A stretch of DNA of 64,000 bases from an uncultured Solobacterium sp. (GCA_946415785.1 CAMKTV010000001.1:38882-102881), one strand, 5' to 3'; counted from the stretch's first letter, positions 13,041 to 64,000 are shown. Numbers and translations are program-made. The notes: generated by a model not told the origin, from the sequence alone.

Positions 13041-13044
13041 TAAT

Positions 13045-47455: not shown

Positions 47456-47473
47456 AAACTCCCTTTCCTTAAA

Positions 47474-47944: not shown

Positions 47945-47966
47945 GTTAATCTCCTTTCGTGTTTAA

Positions 47967-48377
47967 TTATTTAGGCTTCTTTGTGCCATATAATGAACGG
48001 CCTTGTCTACGGTTTTCAACACCAGCACAGTCTAGTGTTCCTCTAACGATGTGATATCTTACACCTGGTAAGTCTTTAACTCTACCGCCTCTGATAAGTA
48101 CGACCGAGTGTTCTTGTAAGTTATGTCCGATACCTGGAATATAAGCAGTAACTTCCATACCATTACTTAATCTAACACGGGCATATTTTCTTAAAGCTGA
48201 GTTAGGCTTCTTAGGTGTCATTGTACCAACTCTGGTACAAACGCCTCTTTTTTGAGGTGATGCCACATTGATAGGTCTAGATTTCAAAGAGTTAAATCCC
48301 TTGTTTAATGCAGGTGATTTAGACTTCCAAGTTCTAGCAGTTCTACCTTTTCTTACTAATTGATTAATAGTAGGCAT
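47967..48377 (-). CDS. rpsL: 30S ribosomal protein S12
   Basis: MPTINQL.RKGR ... [10 protein letters not shown] ... [13 protein letters not shown]. Confidence 0.98.
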
Positions 48378-48519
48378 TTAATTCTCCTTTCTTCTTTTTA
48401 ACACACAATCACAAGTGTGCCATAATCTTGCTTTATATATAGATCCTTTCGGATCTAACAGCCTTATAATAATATAACGAAAAAAATAAAAATACAAGCG
48501 TTTTTTGCGAAATGTTATA

Positions 48520-48786
48520 ATGTTAGAGAAAATGAAGTTAAGAAGTGATTTTATCAGTCAGGAATTAAATGACAGTATTATCTTAGTGCCACTTGATGGT
48601 TATTTTAAAGGTGTCATTAAAGTAAATGAAAGTGCTGCTTTTATTATTGATTGTCTAAAAGAAGAAACAACTGTTGAAGAAATAAAAAGTAAGTTAATGG
48701 CTAAATACAACATTGATGAAAAAGAGGCAGAAAATAGTGTAAAAAAGATAATTGATAAACTTCAAGAAATTAATGCTTTAATATGA
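48520..48786 (+). CDS. PqqD-family (RiPP recognition element-like) small protein
   Basis: About 85-89 aa. The pattern L..DS.ILV.L.G......V.KVNESAAFI...L.EE.TVEEI...L...Y.IDE.EAE..V...I..L matches PqqD/RRE-type winged-helix proteins. The start is uncertain (ATG 48520 or 48532, TTG 48505). An extended -10-like TGtTATAAT lies at 48513-48521. Confidence 0.7.
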   Translation: MLEKMKLRSDFISQELNDSIILVPLDGYFKGVIKVNESAAFIIDCLKEETTVEEIKSKLMAKYNIDEKEAENSVKKIIDKLQEINALI

Positions 48787-49517
48787 TAGATTTTAAGATT
48801 TCTTTAGCTGGCCTATGTATTGGTGTCAGAGCTAATTATGCAAGTACAGAAGAATTTTGTAAGGATTATAAAGTAGATGAAGATCCTGTTTTTGCTGTGG
48901 AAGTCACTTTACAAGATATCGAAAATGAAAGACAGATCTCTTATGTTCAAAGTGAAAGAGAAAAGGGAAAAAGAATTGAATATCCAAATGAATATTTAGA
49001 AAGATTAGCTTTATATCGAAAAATAGTTGTGAAGATAATTGATTATGATGCCTTTTTATTTCATAGTTCTATCATCGCTGTTGATGGTCTGGCCTATGCT
49101 TTTTCTGCTAAATCAGGTACAGGGAAAACGACCCATACAAGATTTTATTTAGAAAAGATAGAAGGTGCCCATGTCTTGAATGGTGATAAGCCGTTATTAA
49201 GAATAATTGATGATAAGGTTTATGCCTGTGGAACTCCATGGCAGGGAAAAGAAAATTTTGGAACCAATGAAATCCTTCCATTAAAAGCTATCTGCTTATT
49301 GCAAAGAGGAAGTGAAAATGAAATCGAAGAGATTAAGTTTTCACAAGGCTTTAATGATATTGTCCAACAAGCATATCATAATGCAGAAGGTGATTTTTTA
49401 GCTAAATCAATTCAATTAATTTTACGACTTCAAAATAAAATAAAAGTATATCGCTTAAAATGTAACCTTGACCCTAATTCAGCGATTATAAGTTATAATT
49501 TTATAAGAGACAACTAA
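48783..49517 (+). CDS. HPr-kinase-like P-loop protein (ScmC / lasso-peptide-kinase-like)
   Basis: FHSSIIAVDGLAYAFSAKSGTGKTTH matches the H(A/S)S.V...G.A..F.G.SG.GKST signature of HprK C-domain-like kinases found in RiPP clusters. It overlaps the PqqD-like gene by 4 nt. Confidence 0.65.
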   Translation: MIDFKISLAGLCIGVRANYASTEEFCKDYKVDEDPVFAVEVTLQDIENERQISYVQSEREKGKRIEYPNEYLERLALYRKIVVKIIDYDAFLFHSSIIAVDGLAYAFSAKSGTGKTTHTRFYLEKIEGAHVLNGDKPLLRIIDDKVYACGTPWQGKENFGTNEILPLKAICLLQRGSENEIEEIKFSQGFNDIVQQAYHNAEGDFLAKSIQLILRLQNKIKVYRLKCNLDPNSAIISYNFIRDN

Positions 49518-49518
49518 G

Positions 49519-50625
49519 ATGGAGAAAAGAAATATCTTAAATAATAAGCTCTATACAAATATGATCTATTTGATTAATTGTGCTTTAAACAATGAAAAAG
49601 TAGATGATGATTTTAATGATGGAGAATTATTGTCTTTAGCCAAAGGGCATCGTTTATCTGCCTTAGTTGCCAGTGCTTTTAAAAAACCAAATTCTAAATG
49701 GGAAAAAGCTTATTTTAAAGCAATAAGAAGAGAAACTCTTTTTGAACAACAAAGAAAAGAAATCACGCAAGCGTTCAGTGAAGAAAAAATCTGGTATTGC
49801 CTATTAAAAGGAATAATCATGAAAGATTATTATCCTAAAGGCTATTTAAGAGAAATGTCTGATAACGATATTCTGATTGATGAGACAAAATGTGAAGAAA
49901 TAAAAAAGATTATGTTAGAAAAGGGCTATCGTTATGAACACGATTATGGTGAACATCATGACGTCTATGTCAAAGAGCCAATCTTTAAATTTGAACTTCA
50001 TCGCAGTTTAATCTCTGAAGAAAAAGAAAAAGAATTCTTTGAATATTTTAAAGATATAAATAAACGTTTAATCAAAGATGAAAATAATGAATATGAATAT
50101 CATCTTAGTAAAGAAGATTTCTATATCTATTCATTTGTCCATACATATCATCATTATGTTTATAATGGAGCAGGCATAAGACATTTAATTGATATTTATT
50201 TATATACAAGCAAGAATGAACTTGATTGGAATTATATAAATAATGAATTAGAAAAATTAGGCATCTTAGAAAAAGAAAGAACTTTTAGAAAGATTGCCTA
50301 TAAATTATTTTCAACATTTGAAGAATTAACTGAAGAAGAAAAAGAACAGTTAGAATTCATGTTTATATCATGTGTTCATGGCTCATATAAAAGCAGAATC
50401 ATGATTATGATGGCAAAAGATAAAGAGAACAATAAGAACTATCGCTTTAAATATCTTCGTGATCGTTTATTATTAGATGACGCCTATCTAAAAGAAAGAT
50501 ATCCATTCTTTTATAAACACCGTGTTGCTTTGCCATTGCTGACTGTATATCGTCTATTCCGTGGCTTATTTAAAGGACATGGAAGACTTAAATGGGAAAT
50601 AAAGAATTTCGTTAAGAATAAATAA
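49519..50625 (+). CDS. Nucleotidyltransferase family protein (NTP_transf_5 / PF14907-like)
   Basis: LLKGIIMKDYYPKGYLREMSDNDILIDE resembles the LKG...Y....R...D(I/L)D(L/I)L active-site region of this family. It starts 1 nt after the previous stop. Confidence 0.6.
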   Translation: MEKRNILNNKLYTNMIYLINCALNNEKVDDDFNDGELLSLAKGHRLSALVASAFKKPNSKWEKAYFKAIRRETLFEQQRKEITQAFSEEKIWYCLLKGIIMKDYYPKGYLREMSDNDILIDETKCEEIKKIMLEKGYRYEHDYGEHHDVYVKEPIFKFELHRSLISEEKEKEFFEYFKDINKRLIKDENNEYEYHLSKEDFYIYSFVHTYHHYVYNGAGIRHLIDIYLYTSKNELDWNYINNELEKLGILEKERTFRKIAYKLFSTFEELTEEEKEQLEFMFISCVHGSYKSRIMIMMAKDKENNKNYRFKYLRDRLLLDDAYLKERYPFFYKHRVALPLLTVYRLFRGLFKGHGRLKWEIKNFVKNK

Positions 50626-50658
50626 TAGTTTTAATATATTTAGTTAAGGAGGCACATT

Positions 50659-51321
50659 ATGGTTTTTTTAAAAGCTATTAAAAAAGTTAGTATCCTTATT
50701 AGTCTTACTTATATTTTTATTGGATATAAATTACTATCATTAAAGGCCAAAGCTAATGAAGTAGTCTTTACTTTTTTAGCAGTAAGTTTATGTGTTATTG
50801 GTCTATTTATTATCATCAGATATTTATTATTAAAAATAAATGAACGTTATAAAAGAAATGATTTTGTCTTAGGGGCCATCATTTTAATGATTGGTGTTGT
50901 GCTCTTATTTGTTAAAGAGCTGGTAATTGCCTTTGACTATTTAATCCTTGGAAGCATGATTATCATCAGCGCTTTAACAATTGTTCAGGATGCTTTTGAT
51001 GGGAAAGCAATAGGTATGAAACCTGTTACTGGCTATATGGTATTGATGGTTGTGGAACTCGGGATAGGTGCTTTAGTATTAATCAATCCATTTAAAGATG
51101 AATTATCTTTTATAATCATGGGCATAAGTTTAATGATTTGTGGATTAGGTGCTTTTGTTTCTAATTTTGTCTTAGCGATAATAAAAACTAAACATGAAAG
51201 AGAAATAAAAGAAGAAACTTTTGAGCCAATAGATGAGATTAAAGAAGAAAACAAAGAAGAAAAAGAAACACAAGAAGAATATAAATTCATTGAAGATAAA
51301 GAAGATAATACTGAACAATGA
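50659..51321 (+). CDS. Multi-pass membrane protein (DUF308/HdeD-like repeats) with an acidic C-terminal tail
   Basis: Six hydrophobic helices in pairs, then EIKEETFEPIDEIKEENKEEKETQEEYKFIEDKEDNTEQ. AAGGAGG lies upstream. Confidence 0.6.
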   Translation: MVFLKAIKKVSILISLTYIFIGYKLLSLKAKANEVVFTFLAVSLCVIGLFIIIRYLLLKINERYKRNDFVLGAIILMIGVVLLFVKELVIAFDYLILGSMIIISALTIVQDAFDGKAIGMKPVTGYMVLMVVELGIGALVLINPFKDELSFIIMGISLMICGLGAFVSNFVLAIIKTKHEREIKEETFEPIDEIKEENKEEKETQEEYKFIEDKEDNTEQ

Positions 51322-51815
51322 GACTATTAGAAATTTGGCTAGCGGATAATGATTTAAGTTATGATTTGTATAAATCATTTGAAAAAGATGAGAATGGCTT
51401 TATTAATTCTTGTTTTGATATGAATAGAGAAGAATATGATGAGTATGTTTTAAAATGTTATAAAAATTCATTAGGCCAAGATTTAAAGCCAGGTTATGTG
51501 CCTGATAGTAAATATGTGGTTATTGATGATGAAGACAATTATGTTGGAATTGTTAATTTTAGACATTATTTAAATGATGCTTTAAGAAATGGTGCAGGGC
51601 ATATTGGTTATATTATTAGAAAAGAATATCGCAATAAAGGCTATGCTAAAAAAGCTTTAGCTCTAGCTTTAGAAAAATGTAAAGACGCCAATATTCATGA
51701 AGTGTATTTATCTTGTAATCTGGATAATATTGCCTCATTAAAAGTTCAATTAGCTAATGGCGCTATCATTCACCATCAAGATGATAAATGTAATTACACA
51801 AGAATATTTATCTGA
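51318..51815 (+). CDS. GNAT-family N-acetyltransferase
   Basis: The acetyl-CoA motif A is I(R/K)KEYRNKGYAKKALALAL. It overlaps the previous gene by 4 nt (ATGA). Confidence 0.8.
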   Translation: MRLLEIWLADNDLSYDLYKSFEKDENGFINSCFDMNREEYDEYVLKCYKNSLGQDLKPGYVPDSKYVVIDDEDNYVGIVNFRHYLNDALRNGAGHIGYIIRKEYRNKGYAKKALALALEKCKDANIHEVYLSCNLDNIASLKVQLANGAIIHHQDDKCNYTRIFI

Positions 51816-52398
51816 TTGAATATTTACAACCACAATAATTTTGATGATATAGATTCAATTCTTTATTCATTCTTTCGTTGATGATTATGCCATCAGCTTT
51901 TTTAAAGTCAGCATATAAGTATTTAATATGAGGATATTTCTTTTGAAGTTCTTCACCAATTTCATTGATATATAAAGCATTCTTACGATTAGAAATTGAC
52001 ATAATGGTTGCACAATAATCATAATGATGTTTTTCACCATACTTAAATGTTTCTTCCATGCGTAATTTATAGCACTTGTAGCATCTCTTGCCACCTTCTT
52101 TTTCATCTTTAAATTCTTTTAATTCTGCATCATATTTTTCATAATCATAAGGGGCTACAATCAGCTTTATATCAGGATTATTTAAGATGTTTAAATATTC
52201 TTTTAAAGCATTAAGACGTTTAAGATATTCATCATATGGATATATATTTGAATTATAGAAAAAGATTGTTATATCAAAATATTTATTAAGATATATTAAA
52301 GGATAGACACTACAAACACCACAACATACATGTAGCAATAATGTCGGTCTTCCTTTTAGTTCTTGAATTTGTTTTAAGTGTTTTTGATAATTATTCAT
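51808..52398 (-). CDS. queH: Epoxyqueuosine reductase QueH (DUF208)
   Basis: LLLHVCCGVCS ... C..CY..R ... YCGC cysteine pattern, adjacent to queA-tgt. Confidence 0.88.
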   Translation of the reverse strand: MNNYQKHLKQIQELKGRPTLLLHVCCGVCSVYPLIYLNKYFDITIFFYNSNIYPYDEYLKRLNALKEYLNILNNPDIKLIVAPYDYEKYDAELKEFKDEKEGGKRCYKCYKLRMEETFKYGEKHHYDYCATIMSISNRKNALYINEIGEELQKKYPHIKYLYADFKKADGIIINERMNKELNLYHQNYCGCKYSIR

Positions 52399-53418
52399 TG
52401 TTTATGAACATTGAATCGCCAAATGAGAAAAAGCGATATTTATTATTGATAGCTTCTTTATATGCAGATAAAATCATCTCTTTGCTTGTGAAGGCAGCAA
52501 TCATCATAATTAATGTTGATTTTGGAAGATGGAAATTGGTTATCTGACAATCAATAGCTTTAAAAACATACGGAGGATAAATAAAGATATTTGTTTCACC
52601 GCTATCCTCTTTAAAAGTTCCATATTTCTTCATGATTGTTTCTAAAGTTCTTGTAGAAGTTGTGCCAACAGCGATAATTCTTCTTCCATCTGCTTTTGCT
52701 TTATTTAATTTATCCGCAACATCTTTAGACATGTAATATGTTTCATAATGCATATGATGATTTTCAATTGTTTTTTCTTTGACGGGTTTAAATGTACCAA
52801 GTCCCACATGTAAAGTGATATCTAGAACTTCAACACCTTTTTCTTTTATTTTTTCAATCAATTCATCAGTAAAATGTAAGCCAGCTGTTGGACAGGCAGC
52901 AGAACCAAGAATTGAAGCATAGATATTCTGATAACGTGAATTATCTTTTAATTTTTCATGAATATAAGGAGGAGTAGGCATTTGACCAATTCTTTCTAAT
53001 ATTTCTATGAATATTCCTTCATATATCATCTTAAAGATTCTGATTCCTTCTTCTTTTACTTCCAGACATTCACCTTTTAATTCATCTGAAAAAGTTATGA
53101 TACTGCCAGCTTTTATTGCTTTGGCATTGCCACACAGACATTCACAAATATCATCATCATTTATTTTTAAGATTAATACTTCAACTTTCGCACCTGTTTC
53201 TTCTTTAGTGCCATATAATCTGGCAGGAATTACTTTAGAATTATTGCGCACTAAAACATCACCTTCATGAAGATAATCGATAATATCTGAAAAATGTTTA
53301 TGTTCAATCTTTCCGCTATTTTTATGAAGAACTAAAAGCCTGCTGGCATCTCTTTTTTCTGTAGGATGTTGAGCAATCAATTCTTCAGGTAAATCAAAAT
53401 CAAATTCATCTACTAACA

Positions 53419-53419
<1 letters not shown>
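52391..53419 (-). CDS. queA: S-adenosylmethionine:tRNA ribosyltransferase-isomerase
   Basis: The motifs FDFDLPEELIAQHP, PTPPYI, GSAA.PTAGLHFT and VGTTS.R.LE. Confidence 0.95.
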
Positions 53420-54573
<1,154 letters not shown>

Positions 54574-54630
54574 TTATACTTGCCACTAGTCTGGGTTTAA
54601 TCATTAGCAAAAATGTGATAACATTTTTTT

Positions 54631-55014
54631 ATGAGTGAATTTGAAAACAATGCTTATTTTTGGCAAAAAGTAGATGCCGCTTATATGTCAGGTGATTATC
54701 AAGTTATATACAAAAAAGGTAGTAAACACCCAAAACTACCAGAATTAATTTTCCCTTGTGACTATGGGCATGTGAGTACAGGAGGAGACTTTGAAACATC
54801 GTTAAAAGTGTTCAAGGGAAGTAAGAAAGAAACAATTGAAAGTGTTGTTGTTTGTTGTAACTTGCTGGAAAAAGACTTATCAACTATTGTTTTAGTTGGC
54901 GTCACCAATGAAGAAAAAGAAGAAATCTTAAAGTTCCTCAATAGCAATGATTTCCAAAAAACAATCATCTTAAATAGAGGAAAAAACATCCCTAGTTGGG
55001 CAATAGCAGAGTAG
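54631..55014 (+). CDS. Small conserved protein, possibly of the short inorganic-pyrophosphatase-like family
   Basis: FWQK.D......(gap)...G(S)KHPK.P..I(F/Y)P.DYG(H/Y) resembles short Bacillota proteins usually labelled inorganic pyrophosphatase. This is recalled, not verified. Confidence 0.4.
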   Translation: MSEFENNAYFWQKVDAAYMSGDYQVIYKKGSKHPKLPELIFPCDYGHVSTGGDFETSLKVFKGSKKETIESVVVCCNLLEKDLSTIVLVGVTNEEKEEILKFLNSNDFQKTIILNRGKNIPSWAIAE

Positions 55015-55036
55015 CATAGACTACTCTTTAATTTAA
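55008..55036 (+). terminator. Hairpin between the small gene and guaA
   Basis: 7-bp stem agagtag/ctactct with a 6-nt loop, then TTTAATTT. Confidence 0.5.
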
Positions 55037-55052
55037 TAAGGAGAAAAAGAAT

Positions 55053-56024
55053 ATGAAAGATCTAAGACCTAGTACAATGAAACGCATCACAAACAAGAAA
55101 TTAGCTTTAGCTTTTATTGAAAAACAAGTTGAAGAAATCAAGAAGCAAGTTGGTGACAACAAAGTCCTGTTAGCATTATCAGGAGGTGTTGATTCTTCTG
55201 TTGTAGCAGCATTATTAATTAAAGCTATCGGCAAGAATCTGGTATGTGTTCATGTAAACCATGGTTTATTAAGAAAAGGTGAGTCTGAACAAGTTATTGA
55301 TGTATTTAAAAAACAATTAGGTGCAACATTAATATATAGAAATAAAACTAATTTATTCTTAGATAACTTAAAAGGTGTAAGTGATCCAGAAAAGAAAAGA
55401 AAGATTATTGGTAAGATCTTTATTGATGTTTTCGCTGAAGAAGCAAAGAAATTGAAAGGGATCAAATATTTAGCCCAAGGAACAATCTATCCAGATATTT
55501 TAGAATCAAAGGGTGTTAAAGCTCATCATAATGTAGGCGGCCTACCTAAATCATTAAAATTTGAATTAGTAGAACCAGTTAAATTCTTATACAAAGATGA
55601 AGTAAGAGTTGTCGGCGAGGCATTAGGCTTACCAAAATCAATGGTATATCGTCAACCATTCCCAGGACCAGGCCTAGGAGTAAGATGTGTTGGCGCTATT
55701 ACTAAAGATAGATTAAACGCATTAAGAGAAGCAGATGCTATTGTTAGAGAAGAGATTGGCAAATTAGAAAAAACACCTTGGCAATATTTTTGTGTAATTC
55801 CTGATTTAAAATCAACAGGTATTAAAGATGGCAAGAGATATATGGGTTGGGCAGCTATCATTAGAGCGATAAACACTAAAGATGCAGTAACTGCCAAATC
55901 ATTTGAAATCCCATATAAAACACTTTATAAGATCAGAGATCGTATCATTAAAGAAGTTCCTGGCGTCAATAGAGTATTATGGGATTATAGTGATAAACCA
56001 GTAAGCACTATTGAGTGGGAATAA
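55053..56024 (+). CDS. guaA: GMP synthase, ATP-pyrophosphatase plus dimerisation domains only (no glutamine amidotransferase domain)
   Basis: N-type PP-loop LALSGGVDSSV, the motifs AQGT.YPD..ES, HHNVGGLP and R.PFPGPGL..R, and the canonical C-terminus IEWE. At 323 aa it starts right at the synthetase domain. Confidence 0.88.
   Translation: MKDLRPSTMKRITNKKLALAFIEKQVEEIKKQVGDNKVLLALSGGVDSSVVAALLIKAIGKNLVCVHVNHGLLRKGESEQVIDVFKKQLGATLIYRNKTNLFLDNLKGVSDPEKKRKIIGKIFIDVFAEEAKKLKGIKYLAQGTIYPDILESKGVKAHHNVGGLPKSLKFELVEPVKFLYKDEVRVVGEALGLPKSMVYRQPFPGPGLGVRCVGAITKDRLNALREADAIVREEIGKLEKTPWQYFCVIPDLKSTGIKDGKRYMGWAAIIRAINTKDAVTAKSFEIPYKTLYKIRDRIIKEVPGVNRVLWDYSDKPVSTIEWE
56001..56024 (+). repeat. att-like copy A, the genuine 3' end of guaA
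   Basis: gta agc act att gag tgg gaa taa (VSTIEWE*). The core GAGTGGGAATA lies at 56013-56023. Confidence 0.9.
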
Positions 56025-56043
56025 GCACAGTATATATAAATAA

Positions 56044-56100
56044 AAAATGCAACGTATTTAAATGCGTTGCATTTTCGTAGCAAAAATGCTACGATTTTTA
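56044..56100 (+). terminator. Two tandem hairpin terminators downstream of guaA
   Basis: A near-perfect 16-nt palindrome aaaatgcaacgtattt/aaatgcgttgcatttt, then an 8-bp stem tcgtagca/tgctacga followed by TTTTTA. Confidence 0.7.
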
Positions 56101-56113
56101 TAGAGGTGTTGCG

Positions 56114-57370
56114 ATGAAAAAAGAGAATAAATATTTAGAATATAAGGAAAAGCAAACTAAAACATATTTAAAAACAGTATGTGCTTTTGCGAATTATCAC
56201 GATGGTGAAATAATCTTTGGAATAAGCGACGACTATAAGGTTTTGGGTATTGATAATCCAAAAGACTTTTGTTTAAATCTAGAAAATCAAATAAACGATT
56301 CAATTAAACCAAAACCAGATTACACACTAAAGATTAATAAAGACACCACTGTAACTTTATATGTTAAGAAAAGCCTATCAACTCCTTATATGTATAATGG
56401 TAAAACTTATAAAAGAAACGATTCATCTACAATCGAAGTGGATGAATTAGAACACAAAAGATTAACATTAGCAGGAATGAACCAAAATTATGAAGAACTT
56501 GCTTCTAATAAACAAGATTTAACTTTTGATATATTAAAGAAAAATCTTAAAGAAAAAATAAATATCAAAACTTTTAATCAAGATACTTTAAGAAGCTTAA
56601 ATTTATTTAATGACGATATTGGTTATAACATCGCAGCATCATTGCTAGCAGACATTAACAAATGTCCAGGTTTAGATATTGTTGTTTTTGGATCTTCAAT
56701 AAGCGATATAAAAAGAAGAAAAACTTTAAATAATCAATCTATTATCAAACAATATTACGAAGCATTAAAGATATTTGAAGAAGAGTATGTTAGTGAAGTT
56801 GTAGATAATGGTTTTAGAAAAAAAGTTGAGAAAATACCATATGATGCTTATAGAGAAGCAATAGCTAATGCTTTGATTCATAGAGTGTGGGATGTAAACG
56901 CTAATACTAAAGTAGAAATGTATCCAGACAGAATCGTTATTTCTTCACCTGGCGGATTACCTCAAGGAATTAGCGAAGAGCAATACAAAAAAGGAACATT
57001 TTCACTACTGAGGAATCCAATAATTTCTAATGTGTTTTATAGACTAAATATTGTAGAAATATTCGCTACAGGAATAAAGAGAATAAATGAACTATATAGA
57101 GAATCTATGTCTAAGCCAATATATGATGTAATGGAACAAGCAATAAGCATTACGCTTCCTCTATACAACATTAATACACTTTCTAAAAACGAAGAGTTAA
57201 TTTTTAGTTCAATGCAAGCAAATCAAAAATATAAGAGAGAAGAATTACAAACGATAACTGGATTAAGCAAAGATAAAGTTATTAGAGCAATTCCTATGTT
57301 ACTAAAAAGAAATTTGATAAATAAAGAAGGAGAAGGCAAAGCAACTATTTATATAAGGACTGACAAATAA
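56114..57370 (+). CDS. AlbA_2 (Schlafen-like divergent AAA) plus HATPase_c_4 plus wHTH protein
   Basis: The N-terminus is YLEYKEK....YLKTVCAFANYHDGEIIFGISDD (AlbA_2). The central region REAIANALIHRVWD....KVEMYPDRIVISSPGGLP ... RNPIISNVF..L.IVE..ATGIKRI matches HATPase_c_4. The C-terminus is winged-helix-like. Confidence 0.8.
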   Translation: MKKENKYLEYKEKQTKTYLKTVCAFANYHDGEIIFGISDDYKVLGIDNPKDFCLNLENQINDSIKPKPDYTLKINKDTTVTLYVKKSLSTPYMYNGKTYKRNDSSTIEVDELEHKRLTLAGMNQNYEELASNKQDLTFDILKKNLKEKINIKTFNQDTLRSLNLFNDDIGYNIAASLLADINKCPGLDIVVFGSSISDIKRRKTLNNQSIIKQYYEALKIFEEEYVSEVVDNGFRKKVEKIPYDAYREAIANALIHRVWDVNANTKVEMYPDRIVISSPGGLPQGISEEQYKKGTFSLLRNPIISNVFYRLNIVEIFATGIKRINELYRESMSKPIYDVMEQAISITLPLYNINTLSKNEELIFSSMQANQKYKREELQTITGLSKDKVIRAIPMLLKRNLINKEGEGKATIYIRTDK

Positions 57371-57486
57371 GTCGTGCTCCCTTCTATGCTCCCCAAAATC
57401 TTAGTAAATAGAGATAATAAATATAAAATCAAGGATACTAGCATATAAATGTATATAATATAAGCAACTAGATATACGTGATATAA

Positions 57487-57510
57487 GGTAGTGCCATCGA
57501 GTGGGAATAA
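57487..57510 (+). repeat. att-like copy B (most diverged)
   Basis: ggt agt gcc atc gag tgg gaa taa, readable as GSAIEWE*. There is a 12-nt exact match to the guaA end (gagtgggaataa) plus partial matches upstream. Confidence 0.5.
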
Positions 57511-57521
57511 TCGAATATATG

Positions 57522-57549
57522 AAATAAGCCTTTAAATAAAGGCTTATTT
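57522..57549. terminator. Hairpin just after att-like copy B
   Basis: Hairpin aaataagcc-tttaaataaa-ggcttattt. Confidence 0.55.
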
Positions 57550-57617
57550 GATGGTTTTGTAAAATTTTGAGTAAAATCTGAGTAAATTTTGATGATTAAT
57601 ATAAAAAATTGAAATAT

Positions 57618-57663
57618 ATGTGCCGAAAAATAGGAAACAAATGTGCCGAAAAATAGGAAACAA
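57618..57663. repeat. Perfect 23-bp direct tandem repeat (2 copies)
   Basis: ATGTGCCGAAAAATAGGAAACAA occurs at 57618-57640 and again at 57641-57663, just upstream of the TA promoter. Confidence 0.95.
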
Positions 57664-57681
57664 ATAATTTGTTTATAAACA

Positions 57682-57710
57682 TTGAAAGTGTATGACATAT
57701 GACATACAAT
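57682..57710 (+). promoter_or_regulatory. Putative TA-operon promoter with direct-repeat operator
   Basis: TTGAAA (57682-87), a 17-nt spacer and TACAAT (57705-10). The spacer holds two abutting ATGACAT heptamers (57692-98 and 57699-705). Confidence 0.5.
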
Positions 57711-57728
57711 AATAGTGAGGTAGGAGCA

Positions 57729-57935
57729 ATGATATCAATTAGACTTAACGAAAATATTGAAAAACAATTAAAAGAAGTTGCTGAATTTGAAGGAGTCAGC
57801 ATATCTGATTATGTTAGAGATTTAATAACGGAAAAACTAGAAGATATGTATGATTTAAAAGTAGCTGAACAAGCTCATAAAGATTATGTAAAAAGTGGTA
57901 AGAAAACATACACATTTGATGAGGTTTTTAAATAG
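57729..57935 (+). CDS. Ribbon-helix-helix antitoxin (RelB/CopG-like)
   Basis: MISIRLNENIEKQLKEVAEFEGVSISDYVRDLI is a typical RHH N-terminus. GAGGTAGGAG lies upstream of ATG 57729. The ORF-track start at 57699 is less likely. The stop abuts the toxin ATG. Confidence 0.8.
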   Translation: MISIRLNENIEKQLKEVAEFEGVSISDYVRDLITEKLEDMYDLKVAEQAHKDYVKSGKKTYTFDEVFK

Positions 57936-58202
57936 ATGAAATATACGCTTGTATTTTCAAGTAGATGTAAAAAAGAAATATCTAAATTAGATAATTCGAC
58001 AAAGAAACTTCTTAAAGGATGGATTTTAAACCATTTAATTAATTGCGATAATCCTAGAGCGACGGGCAAATCATTAACTGGAAATAAAACCGGCTATTGG
58101 CAATATCGCGTTGGTAACTATAGATTGATTGTTGAAATAAAAGATAAAGAATTAATTGTGTTAGCGATTACTTTTAGTCATAGATCGGAAGTGTATAAGT
58201 AG
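57936..58202 (+). CDS. RelE/ParE-superfamily toxin (RelE/StbE type)
   Basis: 88 aa. The motifs (K)L.G...GYWQYRVGNYRLIVEI.D.ELIVLAI.F.HRSEVY are present. Confidence 0.85.
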   Translation: MKYTLVFSSRCKKEISKLDNSTKKLLKGWILNHLINCDNPRATGKSLTGNKTGYWQYRVGNYRLIVEIKDKELIVLAITFSHRSEVYK

Positions 58203-58257
58203 ATACAGTTAAATAAATATATAAAGTTTAATAATAGATTATAAAGAGGAGAAACTT

Positions 58258-60138
58258 ATGAATCCACTATCACCAAAAACGATTGAAAAAAGGTTTAAAG
58301 AAGCAGGTATAACTCTTAATGAAAGAGAATTATTGCATAGGTATATGCTATGCTTTTCTAATTTGTATGGTTGCATAGAGATAGGTGTACTATGGAATGT
58401 TTTTAAATCATATAAAGAAAACATTACTATGAATAAATTCTATGACTATGTTGATATAGCTCAAAGAATGGATACTGATTTTTATATTTTAAATTTAAAT
58501 GAGGTTTATACAGGAGAAACAAGTGAAGAAACAGAAAATAAACTATTAGTTAATAAATATCTAGTAAGAAGATTTGAATTGAAGTTTTGGTATATCTATC
58601 AATTAGAAGAGTATAAAGATGAAAAATTTGGACCATACATTCCTTCAAAAGAAGAACTATTTAGATTTGACCATGATGTTTTTTATGACAATGAAATTGG
58701 TAGAAAAATGGTATCTTTGATTTCAAATCTTAAAACATCAGGAATAAGTACTAATAAAATTAATAAAAAAGAGATCGAGATGATTGATATAAACGGTAAT
58801 AAATGTAAAGGTAAAAGATTAGCTGATATTATTTATTTCGATAGATATGAACAATCATCAATAGATTATTTTAAGAGACCTAATGAAAAAGAGTATCAAA
58901 TAAAAAAGGCAAGCATACCAAGCGCTAAAAAGATTTTAAATGAAATTAAAAATTGTATTATGATTTATGATACCGATGTTTATATGAATAGACTTAATTA
59001 TATCTTAGAGAAGATTAATTATGATTTAGGTGTTGAATTCACAGAAGAATTTTTAAATGAATTTATGGCATTATTTATGGAATTATCAAATAACTCTAAT
59101 AGATGGAATATATTTGGTTGGAAGCCTAATATGCTTAGTACTATGGTACCTAAACATGATGGTCCAATAAAGCTATCAATCGGTCCAAATATGCGAAAAA
59201 TGATTGAAGATGGTGAATACGATTTAGGTGAAATGGATAAATTTTTTAAGGACAATAATCAAAATGTAATTATTGATGATGAAGAAAAAGATGATTATGA
59301 AAAAATCATCAAAAAGAATAATCTTTATCTTGAAGAATTTAGAGATTTTTTAATAAAGAGAAATTATCGAGAAAGTATAATCGATAAGCACATCTCTAGA
59401 GTTGTATATTATATAAATCACTATCTAATGCATGGAATTCCAAAGAATATGGAAGATGGATGTGGCCTTGATGTTATGAGCTTTATAGAAGATTGTGTTA
59501 ATAGAAAACATTTTCCTGCCAGTGTTCACAATATTGATTTTTATCTAGTAAGCATATCGTTGTTTTATGAATGTATGTGTGAAAAAGGACGAATTTCAAA
59601 AAATGTTTTAAAAGAGTTTAAAAAAGATATTACATCTTTTAAAGACGAACTTGTTGAAGACTATTATGATTGTAACCCAAAAGAAATTGATATCTATGAT
59701 GTAATTGAAGCTATTGAAATGGCAAATGGTTATGGTACGGCATATATGAATATTAAGACAGGTGAAAAGGTCTTTATACCAGAAGAGGAATCGTTATATG
59801 ACGGAGATTTAGATGAATTATATGATAGAATCGATACTCCTAATTGGGTGGAAATTCCTGAAATAAAAGATTATAAAATAATGATGAATTTCGCCAGTCA
59901 AGTTAAAGATAAGAATATATCTAATACATTAATTGGTATTCTTAAAAATAAACATTCATATCGAAATTTTAAAAACGCCATATTTGATATGAATATTGAA
60001 GATGAGTACTACGATTATTATGATGAACAGATTTATCAGATAGCAGAAGATTGGTTAGATGAGAATTGTGTTAATGAATTAATCGATGATTATGATGAAG
60101 ATATTGTTTTTGAAAGCGACAATAATACAAAACATTAA
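58258..60138 (+). CDS. Orphan 626-aa protein with a UPF0158-like C-terminal region
   Basis: Strong RBS (AGAGGAGAAA). The cytoplasmic middle segment LEEFRDFLIKRNYRESIIDKHISRVVYYINHYL resembles a recombinase core-binding/SAM-like helix bundle. The C-terminus (IPE..DYKIMMNFA......L...L......YRNFKNAI...........YY....) resembles UPF0158. Both assignments are tentative. Confidence 0.6.
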   Translation: MNPLSPKTIEKRFKEAGITLNERELLHRYMLCFSNLYGCIEIGVLWNVFKSYKENITMNKFYDYVDIAQRMDTDFYILNLNEVYTGETSEETENKLLVNKYLVRRFELKFWYIYQLEEYKDEKFGPYIPSKEELFRFDHDVFYDNEIGRKMVSLISNLKTSGISTNKINKKEIEMIDINGNKCKGKRLADIIYFDRYEQSSIDYFKRPNEKEYQIKKASIPSAKKILNEIKNCIMIYDTDVYMNRLNYILEKINYDLGVEFTEEFLNEFMALFMELSNNSNRWNIFGWKPNMLSTMVPKHDGPIKLSIGPNMRKMIEDGEYDLGEMDKFFKDNNQNVIIDDEEKDDYEKIIKKNNLYLEEFRDFLIKRNYRESIIDKHISRVVYYINHYLMHGIPKNMEDGCGLDVMSFIEDCVNRKHFPASVHNIDFYLVSISLFYECMCEKGRISKNVLKEFKKDITSFKDELVEDYYDCNPKEIDIYDVIEAIEMANGYGTAYMNIKTGEKVFIPEEESLYDGDLDELYDRIDTPNWVEIPEIKDYKIMMNFASQVKDKNISNTLIGILKNKHSYRNFKNAIFDMNIEDEYYDYYDEQIYQIAEDWLDENCVNELIDDYDEDIVFESDNNTKH

Positions 60139-60233
60139 ATTATGATGATTAGTAAATAAAAAAGCAATTAGAGAAATTCTAGTTATTAATAGAATGTTGT
60201 GAAGTAAAAGCGATAAAACATCAACTATTTATA

Positions 60234-60266
60234 AGTGATAAAGTATCAACTATTGAGTGGGAATAA
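60234..60266 (+). repeat. att-like copy C (extended guaA 3' mimic)
   Basis: agt gat aaa gta tca act att gag tgg gaa taa (SDKVSTIEWE*). Compared with guaA 55989-56024 (agt gat aaa cca gta agc act att gag tgg gaa taa), it has a 3-nt gap and a synonymous Ser change, and the last 18 nt are identical. Confidence 0.85.
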
Positions 60267-60425
60267 AAGTACATTTAATGGGGGCAAAATATATCGTCCC
60301 TTTTAAGTCTTTTGAATTTGAAAATAATAATGATAATCTGAACAAGGCATGAAAACATGAGAGGATGGCTTTTTGTTATTCCACCAGGATGTTTTAGGGC
60401 TGTTAGTTAAAAAGAGGGCAGAAAT

Positions 60426-60641
60426 ATGGAAGATTTCAAATATCAAAATGATTTTGAAAAAGCTATTGCTGCTTCTTTAAATCATAATAGTGACATCGAT
60501 TCAACAGGAGCAGTTACTGGTAACATAGTTGGACCATTCTTGGGGTATGATAAAATACCTCATAAATATTTAAACAATTTAGAATTAAAAGAAGAAATAC
60601 TAGATATATCAAAAGATTTATTTATATTGAGACAAGAATAG
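60426..60641 (+). pseudogene. C-terminal remnant of an ADP-ribosylglycohydrolase-family gene
   Basis: This 71-aa ORF carries only the C-terminal metal-site region (NSDIDSTGAVTGNIVGPFLGYDKIPHKYL). Full-length family members are about 250-350 aa, and an in-frame stop lies at 60408-10. Confidence 0.6.
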
Positions 60642-60749
60642 ACATGAAGCATCACATGAATCAAAAATAATCATACATATATTTTCTATCATGTTAAATT
60701 ATTAAAGATTTTACCAAAGTGAAGTTTTTATTGGATATAGGTATTGGCC

Positions 60750-60777
60750 TTGCAAATTTATAAATAATTAGTAATAT
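60750..60777 (+). promoter_or_regulatory. Putative promoter of the 630-aa gene (possibly a leaderless mRNA)
   Basis: TTGCAA (60750-55), a 16-nt spacer and TAATAT (60772-77). ATG 60782 lies 5 nt downstream and has no SD. Confidence 0.35.
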
Positions 60778-60781
60778 ATTT

Positions 60782-62674
60782 ATGATGAATAATGATTATC
60801 TTATAGCTAAAAAACTAGGTGATAAAGATTTTCACCGTTTAATAAATGAAAAGAAAGACCCTTTCTTAAAATCTTTGGAAGATGAGGTTAAAAATCTTTA
60901 TATTTTAAGTAAACAATATGTTGGAACTTTTGATATACCTTTGCATATGATAGTCGGCACCGTAAATAACTTAAGAAAAAGATCTTTTGCGGAAAACTTT
61001 ATGCCTATTATGAATGAAAATAGTGAATTTGCTTATAAATGGAATAATCTATTTGAAAGTCAAGTTAATGAAGGCATCAATGAGCCTATAAAGGTTTATG
61101 AATATCTACAAAACTTTTATGTAATAGAAGGCAATAAAAGAGTTTCGGTTATGAAATTTCTTAATAATTTTGCGATTCGAGCAGAAGTTATTAGAGTTTT
61201 ACCAGAAAGAAACAGCGATAATGAATTGTATTATGAGTTTTTAGATTTTTATTCAGTAGCGCCTATCTATGAAATTGTTTTTTCTAAAAAAGGTGGTTTT
61301 AAAGAATTAGCTAAATATTTAAATAAAGATCTAAATTCACCTTGGCCAATTGAATTAGTTAGAGAATTAGAAGCTTCATTTTTAAGATTTTATTCCATTT
61401 TTATGGAAAAGGGTGGATATCAATTGTCAATGACAGCTGCCGATGGACTCCTTTTATATTTAAAAACATATTCAATTGATTCTTTACTAGACAAATCGAG
61501 AAACATCTTAGAGAATCGTATGAATTTAATGTGGAATGAGTTTTTAAGTAGTGATAACAATGAATTTCTTTTAAAAAGCACCTCATATAATCAAAAAAAT
61601 TGGGATATACTACATTTATTTAACAAACCACCTTATGATGAAAAGCATCCTTTAAAAGTAGCTTTCATTCATAATGATGATGAAAAAGCCTTATGGATAA
61701 AAGAACATGTTAAGGGTGCGAATTATATAAATAATGTTTTTGAAAATATTGTATTATGTAAGAATTATTTTAATTGCGATAGCGATAATGCTGTAAAAAA
61801 AGCAGTAGATGAAGCGATTTCTTGGGGTGCTAAAGTTATTTTTGGAACCTCTTCAACAATTGTATACAGCTTATTAAATAAGGCGCTTGAACATAAAGAT
61901 ATAAAGTTTTTTGATTGTGCCTTAAATATTAAAAGTAACGCTATTGCGACATACTATGGAAGAATGTTTGAAGCAAAGTTTTTGATGGGTATTTTAGCTG
62001 CTCAATTAGCTGATAATCATAAAATTGCCTATATAGCTGATGCACCAGTTTATGGAACTATAGCAAATTTAAATGCTTTTGCCCTTGGCGTATCAACAAT
62101 TGATCCTAAAGCCTTAGTTTATGTTGATTGGAGCGGCAAAAAAGATTTTGATTACAACAACTTTATATTAAAAAACGATATTAAAGTTATATCTGGAAAA
62201 GATAGCGAAGAAGAAAATGCGACCTATGGAGTATATAAGATAAATGAGGATGGAACATATTCGAATTATGGAAGTGCTTATTTTAAGTGGGGCAAATATT
62301 ATGAGTTAATTCTCAAACCAATTATTTATGGCAATAATGAGATTAATGAAAATGATATAGCATCATTATATTGGTGGGGAATTAAAGAAGGTGTTTTAGA
62401 TATAAGATTATCAAAAGAATTATCATATTATTCTTTAAAGACTATCAATGGATTTAAAAACGAAATCATATCTGGATATTATTCAATCTTTGAGGGTAAG
62501 CTAATTAGTCAAGAAGGAATAATCGCAAGAGAATTTGAAACATTAGACTATAAACAAATAATTGGCATGGATTGGTTAAACGACAACATTGTCGGTATAA
62601 TACCAAAAATAAGTGAACTTAATGATGGAAGTCAAAAGCTATTTGAAGTAAGTGGAATAAGAGTTAAAAAATAA
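60782..62674 (+). CDS. Cytoplasmic ParB/Srx-like N-domain plus helical linker plus BMP (PnrA-type periplasmic-binding-protein fold) C-domain protein
   Basis: No signal peptide. The N-terminal segment PIKVYEYLQNFYVIEGNKRVSVMKFL resembles the ParB/sulfiredoxin-fold (D/E)G.(H/K)R motif. The C-terminal half (KVAFIHNDDE... GAKVIFGTSS... ATYYGRMFEAKFLMGILAA... IAYIADAPVYG.IANLNAFALG) resembles BMP-family nucleoside-binding proteins. Confidence 0.6.
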   Translation: MMNNDYLIAKKLGDKDFHRLINEKKDPFLKSLEDEVKNLYILSKQYVGTFDIPLHMIVGTVNNLRKRSFAENFMPIMNENSEFAYKWNNLFESQVNEGINEPIKVYEYLQNFYVIEGNKRVSVMKFLNNFAIRAEVIRVLPERNSDNELYYEFLDFYSVAPIYEIVFSKKGGFKELAKYLNKDLNSPWPIELVRELEASFLRFYSIFMEKGGYQLSMTAADGLLLYLKTYSIDSLLDKSRNILENRMNLMWNEFLSSDNNEFLLKSTSYNQKNWDILHLFNKPPYDEKHPLKVAFIHNDDEKALWIKEHVKGANYINNVFENIVLCKNYFNCDSDNAVKKAVDEAISWGAKVIFGTSSTIVYSLLNKALEHKDIKFFDCALNIKSNAIATYYGRMFEAKFLMGILAAQLADNHKIAYIADAPVYGTIANLNAFALGVSTIDPKALVYVDWSGKKDFDYNNFILKNDIKVISGKDSEEENATYGVYKINEDGTYSNYGSAYFKWGKYYELILKPIIYGNNEINENDIASLYWWGIKEGVLDIRLSKELSYYSLKTINGFKNEIISGYYSIFEGKLISQEGIIAREFETLDYKQIIGMDWLNDNIVGIIPKISELNDGSQKLFEVSGIRVKK

Positions 62675-62675
62675 A

Positions 62676-63311
62676 ATGAGGATATTGGCCTTATCTGACA
62701 AAGAAGATCTTGGATTGTGGAATTATTATGCACCCGAAAAAGTTGAAGGTGTTGATTTAATAATTGCCTGTGGTGATTTAAAAAAAGACTATCTAGAATT
62801 TCTTGTGACAATGATAAACAAGCCTCTTTTATATGTAAATGGTAATCATGATAGATTTAATGATAATTATTATCCAGAGGGTTGTGAAAATATTGATGGT
62901 AAATTATTCCTATTGAATGATCTTAGAGTTTTAGGGCTTGGAGGATCAAACAAATATAGTGATGAAGCAATAAATATGTATAGCCAAAAACAAATGAAAA
63001 AAAGAGTAAATAGAATTAAAAAGAACATTAAAAGTAATAATGGTTTTGACATACTTGTAGCTCATGCGCCAATTAAAGGATATGGCGATCAAGAAGATAT
63101 TGCTCATCAAGGATTTGAAGTGTTTGAAGATTTAATAAATCAATATAAACCAAAAATAATGTTACATGGGCATATCCATAGAGAATATGGAAATTTTCAA
63201 AGAATTATTAATCATCCAAGTGGTACTACTTTGATCAATTGTTTTGAATCAGTAATATTTGATATTGACTTTAAAAAAGATAAAAACAATATTGCTTTTC
63301 ATCGCTTTTAA
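62676..63311 (+). CDS. Calcineurin-like metallophosphoesterase
   Basis: The motifs are MRILALSD (motif I), ACGDL (motif II), GNHD (motif III), VAHAP and GH.H. It starts 1 nt after the previous stop. Confidence 0.8.
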   Translation: MRILALSDKEDLGLWNYYAPEKVEGVDLIIACGDLKKDYLEFLVTMINKPLLYVNGNHDRFNDNYYPEGCENIDGKLFLLNDLRVLGLGGSNKYSDEAINMYSQKQMKKRVNRIKKNIKSNNGFDILVAHAPIKGYGDQEDIAHQGFEVFEDLINQYKPKIMLHGHIHREYGNFQRIINHPSGTTLINCFESVIFDIDFKKDKNNIAFHRF

Positions 63312-63322
63312 ACTATTTGTTC

Positions 63323-63346
63323 GTAAGTACTATTGAGTGGGAATAG
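63323..63346 (+). repeat. att-like copy D (distal boundary)
   Basis: gta agt act att gag tgg gaa tag (VSTIEWE* with a TAG stop). 22 of the 23 nt match guaA 56001-56023. Confidence 0.85.
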
Positions 63347-63524
63347 TAAGAACTGTCATTCTACACTTAAATATATTCCAAATTTTACATTCAAATATAT
63401 TTTCGTAGGATAACTCAACCTAGACATAAACAAATATTATTGGCTCTTGTTTATTCTTTAAGAAGAAAGAAAGATAAATATCCAATTATTAAAGCAACAT
63501 TTTTTATTAAGATTATCTAGAATT

Positions 63525-63548
63525 AAAGTCCTTAGCTAAGGATTTTTT
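63525..63548 (+). terminator. Terminator distal to the att array (possibly the ancestral guaA terminator)
   Basis: Hairpin aaagtcctt-agct-aaggatttt followed by a T-run. Confidence 0.6.
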
Positions 63549-63575
63549 AGGTTATAATTTTACTTGAGGTAAATT

Positions 63576-64000
63576 ATGAAAAAAGAGTTTTTTAAAAAGG
63601 ATTTAAAAGAGATTCTAAGTTTTATCAATTCAGAAATTAAAAAACATAAGCTTAAAAAGAGTGAAGAAAATAGAGCATCTTTAATGGTTGAAGAAACTTT
63701 AATGACGCTAATTGAACATACTAATGAGGACACTATTACAATTAATACAAGTTATTTAGGTGGAATATTTAAGATAAAAATAGTCTCTAAGGGCGAAGCC
63801 TTTGACCCATTATCAGTAAGCGACTATGATCCAATAAGAGAAGCTCTGATGAAGTCTTTTGCGGAAGACATTCAAACTAGGCACCACAAGAATACTAATA
63901 TCATCACGATAACTGCTTATAAATCAAGATATATACTTCTTTATCGATTGATAGCTTGGGGCCTTGCGGGCTTGTTGCTGTCATTATTAATTAAAAACTT
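63576..64000 (+). CDS. Hypothetical protein, 3'-truncated by the window edge (soluble N-domain followed by a TM helix)
   Basis: ATG 63576 lies behind TGAGGT. The frame stays open to the end of the window (141 codons) and ends in the hydrophobic stretch YILLYRLIAWGLAGLLLSLLI. It is absent from the ORF track because it has no stop. Confidence 0.6.
   Translation, partial: MKKEFFKKDLKEILSFINSEIKKHKLKKSEENRASLMVEETLMTLIEHTNEDTITINTSYLGGIFKIKIVSKGEAFDPLSVSDYDPIREALMKSFAEDIQTRHHKNTNIITITAYKSRYILLYRLIAWGLAGLLLSLLIKN

Follow-up and report, generated by a model that had tools for sequence, protein, structure and literature searches.

We analyzed a 64,000-nucleotide stretch of DNA from an uncultured Solobacterium sp. 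(CAMKTV010000001.1:38882-102881; hereafter the window, to whose full length all coordinates refer unless a locus is named) and find that the 7.3 kb downstream of guaA, the GMP synthase gene, very probably constitute an accretion array at an attachment (att) site in the guaA 3′ end, built by insertion and decay of elements. Four same-strand copies of the end of guaA divide this DNA into three small units, referred to here as islets 1, 2, and 3. The source organism is an uncultured member of the Erysipelotrichaceae from the ruminant gut, the nearest named relatives of which are metagenome-assembled genomes (MAGs) from goat gut. Related contigs that were fetched for comparison are designated loci L001 to L117.

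The guaA 3′ end recurs downstream in a single orientation

The 11-nt sequence GAGTGGGAATA, located at the very end of guaA, is matched exactly four times in the window, each time on the + strand (56013-56023, 57499-57509, 60255-60265, and 63335-63345), and the last codons of guaA thus recur three times downstream on the same strand, as a first-pass annotation of this DNA had noted. The mean expectation from dinucleotide-shuffled sequence is 0.04 matches per window and none of 100 shuffles reaches four, a count that rules out a chance repeat. A repeat search returns a single 25-nt family at 56000-56024, 57486-57510, 60242-60266, and 63322-63346; the copies share 76 to 88% identity with the guaA copy, and their spacings of 1486, 2756, and 3080 bp confirm the segment lengths first assigned to this region. 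No further copy with ≤5 mismatches to ACTATTGAGTGGGAATAA is found in the array or on the opposite strand. The target gene, the four att copies, and the three units that they delimit are as follows.

55053..56024, + strand: guaA, the target gene (Pfam GMP_synt_C, 4.2e-29, plus PP-loop families)
56001..56024, + strand: att copy A, attL-like, the current guaA 3′ end (core GAGTGGGAATA at 56013-56023)
56025..57510, + strand: islet 1, 1486 bp, GC 28.3%
57487..57510, + strand: att copy B, the most degenerate, GGTAGTGCCATCGAGTGGGAATAA (repeat search; alignable over ~38 nt with the end of guaA in L014)
57511..60266, + strand: islet 2, 2756 bp, GC 26.2%
60234..60266, + strand: att copy C, which mimics the guaA end over 33 nt, SDK-VSTIEWE-stop (repeat search and direct reading)
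60267..63346, + strand: islet 3, 3080 bp, GC 28.1%
63323..63346, + strand: att copy D, GTAAGTACTATTGAGTGGGAATAG (homology to L001 resumes at this copy)

All four copies read ...(I)EWE-stop, and the reading frame of guaA is preserved throughout. Copy C, which reads AGT GAT AAA GTA TCA ACT ATT GAG TGG GAA TAA, differs from guaA by one missing codon (CCA) and by an exchange of one Ser codon for another (AGC to TCA), just as the first reading of this copy had it. Copy B has three mismatches in 18 positions. The 11-nt core is perfect in four of four copies, whereas the bases around it drift.

By direct reading, the core comprises the 7-bp sequence GAGTGGG inside an inverted repeat, TATT/AATA, and in copy D the arms form a perfect 6-bp inverted repeat, ACTATT-GAGTGGG-AATAGT. 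Tyrosine-recombinase core sites usually have such a layout, with a short spacer between inverted arms. The att core of the array is predicted to be TATT-GAGTGGG-AATA, with TATTGAGTGGGAATA as the att-site sequence expected to act as recombinase substrate. An integrative mobile element exploiting the XerCD/dif system was set aside on direct reading of this core, with its 7-bp spacer and its 4- to 6-bp arms copied from a gene end.

The motif is tied to guaA well beyond the window. A degenerate att pattern has 110 matches over the window and L001 to L116 (1.58 Mb in total), 101 on the + strand and nine on the − strand; in the 15 loci listed individually, every match shares the strand of guaA and either coincides with the guaA stop codon or follows it. 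Similarly, in a scan of 98 sources with a 17-mer, every extra copy falls downstream of guaA and on the guaA strand. The first-pass annotation had allowed that the motif might be a generic repeat, but over the 1.58 Mb it is confined to guaA ends and the copies that follow them.

These data effectively refute the notion that the array is an artefact or a coincidence, that is, a generic genome repeat or a chimeric metagenome assembly joined at a shared k-mer. Such an origin is made conceivable by the uncultured source and by the fact that the closest relatives are all MAG or metagenome contigs. Against it stand the four copies where 0.04 are expected and their single orientation, only downstream of guaA, across the 1.58 Mb of related sequence. 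Moreover, the shared 17 to 25 nt are shorter than typical assembly k-mers, and an assembly chimera is ruled out by junctions that recur in independent assemblies: those at copies A and B in L112, L113, and L114, and the flanks of those at C and D in L003 and L001.

Relatives hold different units at the same site

Contigs encoding a GuaA ≥96% identical to that of the window represent, with the window itself, five occupancy states (window, L114, L001, L014, and L116), and the breakpoints between these states are the guaA stop codon and copy D. The content of the site is therefore not identical among relatives but varies between strains, as the first-pass annotation had anticipated, with L001, L114, L014, and L116 each differing from the window. 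Blocks of homology between the window and L001, L014, and L114 stop at 56024, the guaA stop codon. L001 (GuaA 97%) is collinear with the window over 45055-56024 (96.5% identity), precisely as far as the guaA stop, and homology restarts at 63323, the first base of copy D; the intervening site holds a single 1.68-kb islet (TMEM164-like plus MgtC) in place of the three of the window. L114 (GuaA 98%) harbors guaA, islet 1 at 99.3 to 99.4% identity, copy B, 43 nt, a further copy, ACCATTGAGTGGGAGTAG, and then a different islet. This distal islet contains an AlbA_2-like gene and matches part of the L003 array at 98% identity, unlike the core DNA of L003, which is only 80 to 87% identical to that of the window; L001 also has this islet, in a deleted version. 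Finally, in L014 to L017 (GuaA 96%) and L116 (98%), recombinase-bearing elements begin directly after the guaA stop.

Junctions internal to the array recur as well. The left end of islet 3 (60267-60327) also follows an att copy in L003, where it is joined to different cargo (window 60244-60327 corresponds to L003 17546-17626 at 91.7% identity), and the junction of islet 1, copy B, and islet 2 is reproduced at 99.4 to 99.7% identity in two independent short contigs, L112 and L113. Units re-assort among genomes, with islet 1 found beside a different right-hand neighbor and the same unit found at different array positions. At greater distance, a scan of GTDB with GuaA returned no representative closer than 91%, and the clade at ≤88% is without arrays. 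Single extra att copies occur in three Clostridia MAGs (L045, L085, and L030), the open reading frame (ORF) lists of which show no obvious integrase.

Pairs of att copies can also lie very close together, only 43 bp apart in L114 (12459-12500) and 71 bp apart in L117 (att3 to att4). These mini-units are probably the scars of elements that have had their whole content deleted.

The comparison among strains bears on an alternative that overlaps our own and that we regard as possible, if doubtful: that the array is a fossil record of past integrations, with islets that are now inert, and that strains differ through homologous recombination of the region downstream of guaA together with deletions between short repeats. 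Exchange would then follow transformation or conjugation, by crossover in guaA and in the distal flank, with no recombinase on the small units. Consistent with this, the window is without a recombinase, copy B is degenerate at three of 18 positions, the junction of islets 1 and 2 at copy B is identical in independent samples, and the 43- and 71-bp mini-units resemble deletion scars. The exchange points, however, are the att copies and not arbitrary positions in the longer homologous flanks; an islet is 98% identical across lineages with core DNA at only 80 to 87% and so has moved without its flanks; and the 11-nt core is perfect in all four copies despite the drift around it. Each of these observations speaks against a purely fossil record.

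Islet 2 retains the left end of a recombinase-bearing element

In L014 to L017, L116, L098, L099 to L104/L117, L107, and L021, the guaA stop is adjoined by a gene module that encodes three co-transcribed proteins, an integrase-like protein of 379 to 394 aa, a protein of ~870 to 900 aa, and a protein of ~335 to 355 aa, with a helix-turn-helix (HTH) protein encoded divergently upstream. The integrase-like gene is convergent with guaA and lies 110 to 130 bp from the guaA stop. The three versions of this module share only 25 to 37% identity, yet all abut guaA, and this holds even where the neighborhood differs (guaB-guaA) or where guaA is only 52% identical. The three-gene operon lies at the following positions.

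L014 8807-13713, − strand: three-gene operon
L116 2473-7202, − strand: three-gene operon
L099 6328-11170, + strand: three-gene operon
L117 14492-19334: three-gene operon

The spacer of ~110 bp that separates the integrase-like gene from the guaA stop is conserved and contains a hairpin, AAGCCTTTAAATAAAGGCTT, and a direct repeat, TGAGTAAAATCTGAGTAAATTTTGA. An equivalent left end is kept at the start of islet 2.

57511..57610, + strand: element left end, with hairpin at 57522-57549 and direct repeat TGAGTAAAATCTGAGTAAATTTTGA at 57568-57592

The window sequence is 80 to 91% identical to this spacer in L014, L098, L099, and L107, and matches a remnant in L003 as well. The left-end motif occurs once in the window (57568-57592). 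It lies just after the guaA stop in L014 to L017, L098, and L099 to L103 (in L104, guaA is beyond the contig end), the exception being L003/L018, where it is an internal remnant; in JGI metagenomes, four of seven matches directly follow a guaA stop. IMG/VR contains no match to the motif and so lends no support to a phage or satellite origin. Because the left end is kept with no recombinase behind it, islet 2 appears to be the leftover of an element whose recombination module is gone. Of the decayed or cis-mobilizable element (CIME)-type origin that the first-pass annotation had proposed for all three segments, the part that concerns islet 2 thus gains direct support from sequence comparison, whereas islets 1 and 3 would share such an origin by analogy.

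Graded remnants in other contigs fill in intermediate stages: L003/L018 keep the left end and the last 36 codons of the integrase-like gene, and L004 to L013/L019 keep the last 39 codons of an L116-type gene. At the other extreme, L117 carries an intact 14.4-kb element bounded by att1, at the guaA stop, and att2, and elements of this family are therefore bounded by copies of the guaA end. Besides the three-protein module and its HTH protein, the L117 element encodes a Xis-like protein of 74 aa and, in mid-element position, a classical tyrosine integrase (Arm-DNA-bind_4/SAM_3/Phage_integrase); it also contains genes for a NikA-like protein and a protein kinase, as well as seven unknown ORFs. 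Beyond att2 follow a 2.5-kb islet without a recombinase (metallophosphoesterase, 137-aa protein, and AAA_15/21 ATPase), att3, 71 bp, att4, and the flank.

The window units themselves contain no genes for integration, excision, or transfer among ORFs of ≥40 aa, the range that our islet gene survey covered, two of the encoded proteins being without an assignable family. This agrees with the first impression that no segment encodes a recombinase: the seven islet proteins listed below match no recombinase, excisionase, or relaxase family in Pfam, five of them match none in NCBIfam and/or PHROGs, and a tblastn search of the whole window with both recombinase types of the relatives is without a match. 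Each of the three units nevertheless has, on either side, an att copy in which the 11-nt core is perfect. A recombinase of the element's own next to an att copy is found in L014, L116, L098, L099/L117, and L107 but in none of the window units, and neither the window nor those relatives without an intact element have a resident recombinase next to the array.

The absence of recombinase genes could also mean that the units never had any. On this account, they are cargo-only cassettes, integron- or tycheposon-like, small and equipped with promoters, and they are shuffled at guaA by a recombinase encoded elsewhere, whether chromosomally or by the four-gene module. We consider this quite unlikely. 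It does fit the size of the units (0.04 to 5 kb, one to four genes), their common orientation with guaA in the window, the occurrence of the same unit at different array positions in different genomes, the left ends of ~60 to 100 bp that are common to different cargo, and a cargo rich in toxin-antitoxin and candidate defense genes. It does not account for a left end of islet 2 that corresponds exactly to the intergenic end of a recombinase-bearing element, nor for the graded remnants of recombinase genes in relatives, which speak of decay and not design, nor for the truncated gene in islet 3; a resident recombinase beside the array is lacking, as are attC-like hairpin sites. An integron in the strict sense was rejected, there being no IntI in the 64-kb window and the repeats being direct copies of a gene end and not attC palindromes.

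A divergent integrase-like protein and its partners

The integrase-like protein of the guaA-adjacent module may be a highly divergent tyrosine recombinase. It matches PHROG_1 (2.5e-10 and 5.9e-10), NCBIfam XerA (7e-7), and a PDB entry for Tn1549 Int (8e-4), whereas the match to Pfam Phage_integrase (2.6e-4) scores 21.2 bits, below the gathering threshold of 27.1 bits. Alignment of profiles with hhalign matches it to classical integrases at 4.9e-5 over 290 columns. Invariant in the family are the box I Arg, a Lys, YxxR in place of HxxR, and GH, the last of these followed by x8-R-x2-[F/Y]. An AlphaFold2 model based on an 11-sequence alignment has a predicted local distance difference test score of 52 and is too poor to use. 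In a library of 1.84 billion proteins, the family comprises 819 representative clusters at E ≤ 1e-3, 347 of these at ≤1e-30, and it is without curated annotation.

The ~890-aa partner is characterized by an invariant C-terminal NHYxDY motif and gives no signal against classical integrases in hhalign (probability 0.2%), and the ~340-aa protein is zinc-ribbon-like; neither has a match in Pfam, NCBIfam, PHROGs, or PADLOC. Judged from these sequence features, the integrase-like protein and its partners may form a split or heteromeric recombinase. A bolder extension, which we think unlikely, is that the four-gene module is an undescribed, possibly heteromeric recombination system that serves the guaA site in trans, in which case the arrays would be a store of toxin-antitoxin and defense cassettes shuffled within and between Erysipelotrichaceae lineages and not a graveyard.

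Gene content of the islets and of the guaA locus

The seven islet proteins examined are encoded as follows.

56114-57370, + strand: 418-aa Schlafen/AlbA_2 plus HATPase_c_4 protein, the sole islet 1 gene (Pfam AlbA_2, 3e-19; HATPase_c_4, 7e-17)
57699-57935, + strand: ribbon-helix-helix/DUF6290 antitoxin, islet 2 (Pfam DUF6290, 5.6e-21)
57936-58202, + strand: ParE toxin, islet 2 (Pfam ParE_toxin, 1.7e-9)
58258-60138, + strand: 626-aa protein, islet 2 (ORF)
60426-60641, + strand: C-terminal fragment of an ADP-ribosylglycohydrolase, islet 3 (Pfam ADP_ribosyl_GH, model positions 245-286 of 287)
60782-62674, + strand: 630-aa protein with a Bmp/PnrA-like domain, islet 3 (Pfam Bmp, 1e-13)
62676-63311, + strand: 211-aa metallophosphoesterase, islet 3 (Pfam Metallophos, 5.6e-10)

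Base composition, which the first-pass annotation had suggested as a check at the boundaries, sets the islets apart, with GC contents of 26 to 28% in the islets versus 31.4% in the rest of the window. All window units are co-oriented with guaA and carry their own terminators and promoter-like regions, and no Rfam family is detected across 54000-64000. Islet 1 opens with two hairpin terminators (56048-56094), of which the scan calls a terminator-like site at 56075-56094. The protein that follows also matches PHROG 12156 (7.5e-47), and a paralogue with 27% identity and the same AlbA_2/HATPase_c_4 domains is encoded in the islet of L003/L114 (L003 19459-20796).

In islet 2, searches of Pfam, NCBIfam, PHROGs, and PADLOC assign the 626-aa protein to no family. 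Just upstream of the antitoxin-toxin pair, at 57604-57665, stand 2.7 tandem copies of a 23-bp unit, AAAAATAGGAAACAAATGTGCCG, which may serve as an operator or iteron; contig L113 has a one-base difference in one of the copies. A ParE toxin with 48% identity is encoded in a 2.66-kb guaA islet of a Clostridiales MAG (L045 11393-11653). In islet 3, the ADP-ribosylglycohydrolase gene is considered truncated because only model positions 245-286 of 287 are matched. The N-terminal half of the 630-aa protein is without an assignable family, and the 211-aa protein matches the PADLOC candidate defense family PDC-S10 (2.7e-18).

GuaA of the window is a GMP synthase of 323 aa that consists of the ATP-pyrophosphatase half only, and it is intact despite the array. 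Its closest homologues are named GMP synthase and come from Erysipelotrichaceae MAGs. The protein has no glutamine-amidotransferase domain, and its gene is preceded by a conserved 127-aa ORF without a family (54631-55014). GuaA of this short type, at 74 to 80% identity, is also encoded in MAGs labeled Oscillospiraceae, Lachnospiraceae, Mogibacterium, and even Bacteroidales, a spread across labels that suggests either horizontal transfer or MAG contamination.

The distal end of the array

Copy D is followed by a segment common to the window and L001.

63347..64000, + strand: segment after copy D (63435-64000 corresponds to L001 13151-13716 at 98.9% identity)

The sequence that spans copy D itself, 63323-63437, corresponds to L001 12631-12744 at 89.6% identity. 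Between the copy-D flank and the transporter gene, L001 has ~406 bp of extra noncoding sequence (12745-13150) that is absent from the window (63437/63435). The first-pass annotation had placed a terminator at 63525-63548, followed by an ordinary gene. A simple terminator scan does not call the hairpin at that position. The gene that starts at 63576 does encode the N-terminus of a 534-aa SDF-family transporter, but it need not mark a return to ordinary chromosomal sequence: in L001 the post-copy-D segment (4.85 kb, four genes) precedes a further pair of att copies (17489 and 17955), which read ...ACTATTGAGTGGGAGTAG and then ...ATTATTGAGTGGGAATAA. Because of these additional copies, the window array probably extends beyond 64000; by the pattern of L001, ~4.2 kb with genes for the SDF transporter, a 255-aa protein, an MBL-fold protein, and a 153-aa protein would come before the next copy. 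In a Mogibacterium MAG with a GuaA that is only 77% identical, guaA is followed at a distance of 7 bp by a transporter homologue with 63% identity (L063 10182-11765). The transporter gene could be an old chromosomal neighbor of guaA or, alternatively, mobile cargo, and the segment after copy D either the chromosomal flank or a fourth array unit.

A second strain-variable block was noted upstream, at approximately 48475-50655, between rpsL and a 220-aa gene. It contains PqqD-like, ScmC-like (faint), and NTP_transf_5 genes, resembles a maturation locus for ribosomally synthesized and post-translationally modified peptides, and is present in L001, L014, and L114 and absent from L003 and L004.

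Discussion

We propose that the array grew by repeated use of one site. The attP of each incoming element would mimic the last 17 to 45 nt of guaA, examples being copy b of L001 (~45 nt), copy C of the window (33 nt), and copy c of L001 (NPVGTIEWE-stop). Each insertion would restore the ...IEWE-stop of guaA, leave a second copy on the far side, and bring a terminator to a position just past the new guaA stop; the scan calls terminator-like hairpins at 56075-56094 and 57522-57549, directly behind copies A and B. Newcomers would insert successively into a resident att copy, and internal deletions would strip away the recombination genes, giving rise to three units without a recombinase and four att copies. 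Islet 2 would be a deletion derivative of the ~14-kb element family with the four-gene module, and islets 1 and 3 may be similarly decayed elements or cargo-only units. With an att copy on each side, units could then be lost, swapped, or moved, either by a recombinase acting in trans, as for a CIME, or by recombination across repeats or flanks; this mobility would be the reason that strains of the same species differ in the units that they hold. The re-assortment of units between arrays and lineages lends indirect support to mobilization by a recombinase from a related element.

In this scheme we infer the order of events, the present-day mobility of the units, and the identity of the acting recombinase, and several observations weigh against it. 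Islets 1 and 3 have no relic of a recombination module, the only truncated gene being the cargo gene in islet 3. A truly empty guaA site, which the first-pass annotation had wished to use for comparison, was not found among the contigs retrieved, and even the 88% identical species with a single copy (L004 to L013 and L019) still carries the 39-codon recombinase remnant. Intact elements have two recombinase candidates, the integrase-like protein adjacent to guaA and the internal classical integrase with its Xis-like and NikA-like neighbors. The former has no conserved Tyr in the column of the canonical nucleophile: proteins of the 394-aa type have Cys, Ala, or Phe there, and that of L116 has Tyr. 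Finally, homologous recombination after DNA uptake could re-assort the small units with no site-specific recombination of these units.

The choice of target has ample precedent. SaPI-type islands were one example of integration at guaA given in the first-pass annotation.

The guaA 3′ end is a published integration hotspot (PMC4377027, PMC4844618, PMC13418153, PMC5704250), and the view of this site as a hotspot is borne out down to the core, the same 11-mer having been published as an att core. It is found at guaA for Tn6254 of Lactobacillus hokkaidonensis (PMC4377027), for Tn6647 of Enterococcus, which occurs in a composite with Tn5801 (bioRxiv 10.64898/2026.03.26.714560), and as the direct repeat and att core of GIflu-1 in Vibrio (PMC13418153), and 11-bp direct repeats border the Tn5801-like islands at the guaA 3′ end (PMC4844618). 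Integrative and mobilizable elements (IMEs) at guaA are listed for Trueperella, Brucella, Pseudomonas, and streptococci, and other elements at this gene include GIsul2, ATE-1, and the streptococcal Tyr_3 IMEs (PMC5704250, PMC5357655). The window units resemble Tn5801, Tn6254, Tn6647, and GIflu-1 in the target codons, the 11-nt direct repeat GAGTGGGAATA, and the restored frame. They differ in being 1.5 to 3.1 kb long, compared with 20 to 50 kb, and in having no integrase, conjugation or mobilization, or resistance genes. The integrase of Tn6254 is adjacent to guaA (PMC4377027), and the integrase-like gene of the relatives has the same position; its product, however, is highly divergent and is accompanied by two large partner proteins of unknown family.

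In architecture, the array is closest to established composites. The definition of CIMEs and a three-step model of integration, decay to a CIME, and new integration are established (PMC5704250). CIME arrays such as ICESt1/ICESt3-CIME at fda in Streptococcus thermophilus, formed with integrative conjugative elements (ICEs), and IME-CIME at tRNA-Lys in S. agalactiae likewise stack att-bounded units without integration or transfer genes and form composites with intact elements, and the intact element of L117 stands in tandem with units that lack a recombinase just as streptococcal ICEs and IMEs do (PMC5704250). Compared with the streptococcal CIMEs, the present array belongs to a different host clade, the ruminant-gut Erysipelotrichaceae, and has a different target gene and recombination module; its units are smaller and more numerous, with at least four att copies here and four to five in relatives, and are candidates for cis-mobilization. 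Tycheposons of Prochlorococcus also integrate repeatedly at one site, with newcomers pushing older elements inward and with plug-in cassette cargo, and their islands contain scattered partial copies of the target gene and fragmented integrases (bioRxiv 10.1101/2020.12.28.424599). Unlike the window units, tycheposons insert at tRNA genes and are equipped with integration and replication modules of their own, and the likeness is one of architecture and not of compared proteins. Integron arrays share the small, co-oriented, mostly single-function units between short recombination sites; the guaA array differs from these in having no adjacent IntI and no attC-type imperfect palindromes, in units with their own terminators and promoter-like regions, and in the presence of element-borne recombinase relics.

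The concepts are unchanged by these findings, as both the target site, down to the 11-mer, and the process of accretion and CIME formation have been published. What the locus provides is a clean, well-delimited case of island growth by accretion and decay in an uncultured ruminant-gut member of the Erysipelotrichaceae. The best lead lies outside the window, in the conserved, unannotated recombinase-like module that always abuts guaA and has an atypical active-site pattern. For annotation, it is useful to recognize the 7.3 kb as strain-variable accessory DNA, with a toxin-antitoxin pair, a Schlafen/AlbA_2 protein, and a candidate defense phosphoesterase, and copies of the guaA end can be used as markers that delimit such units in MAGs.

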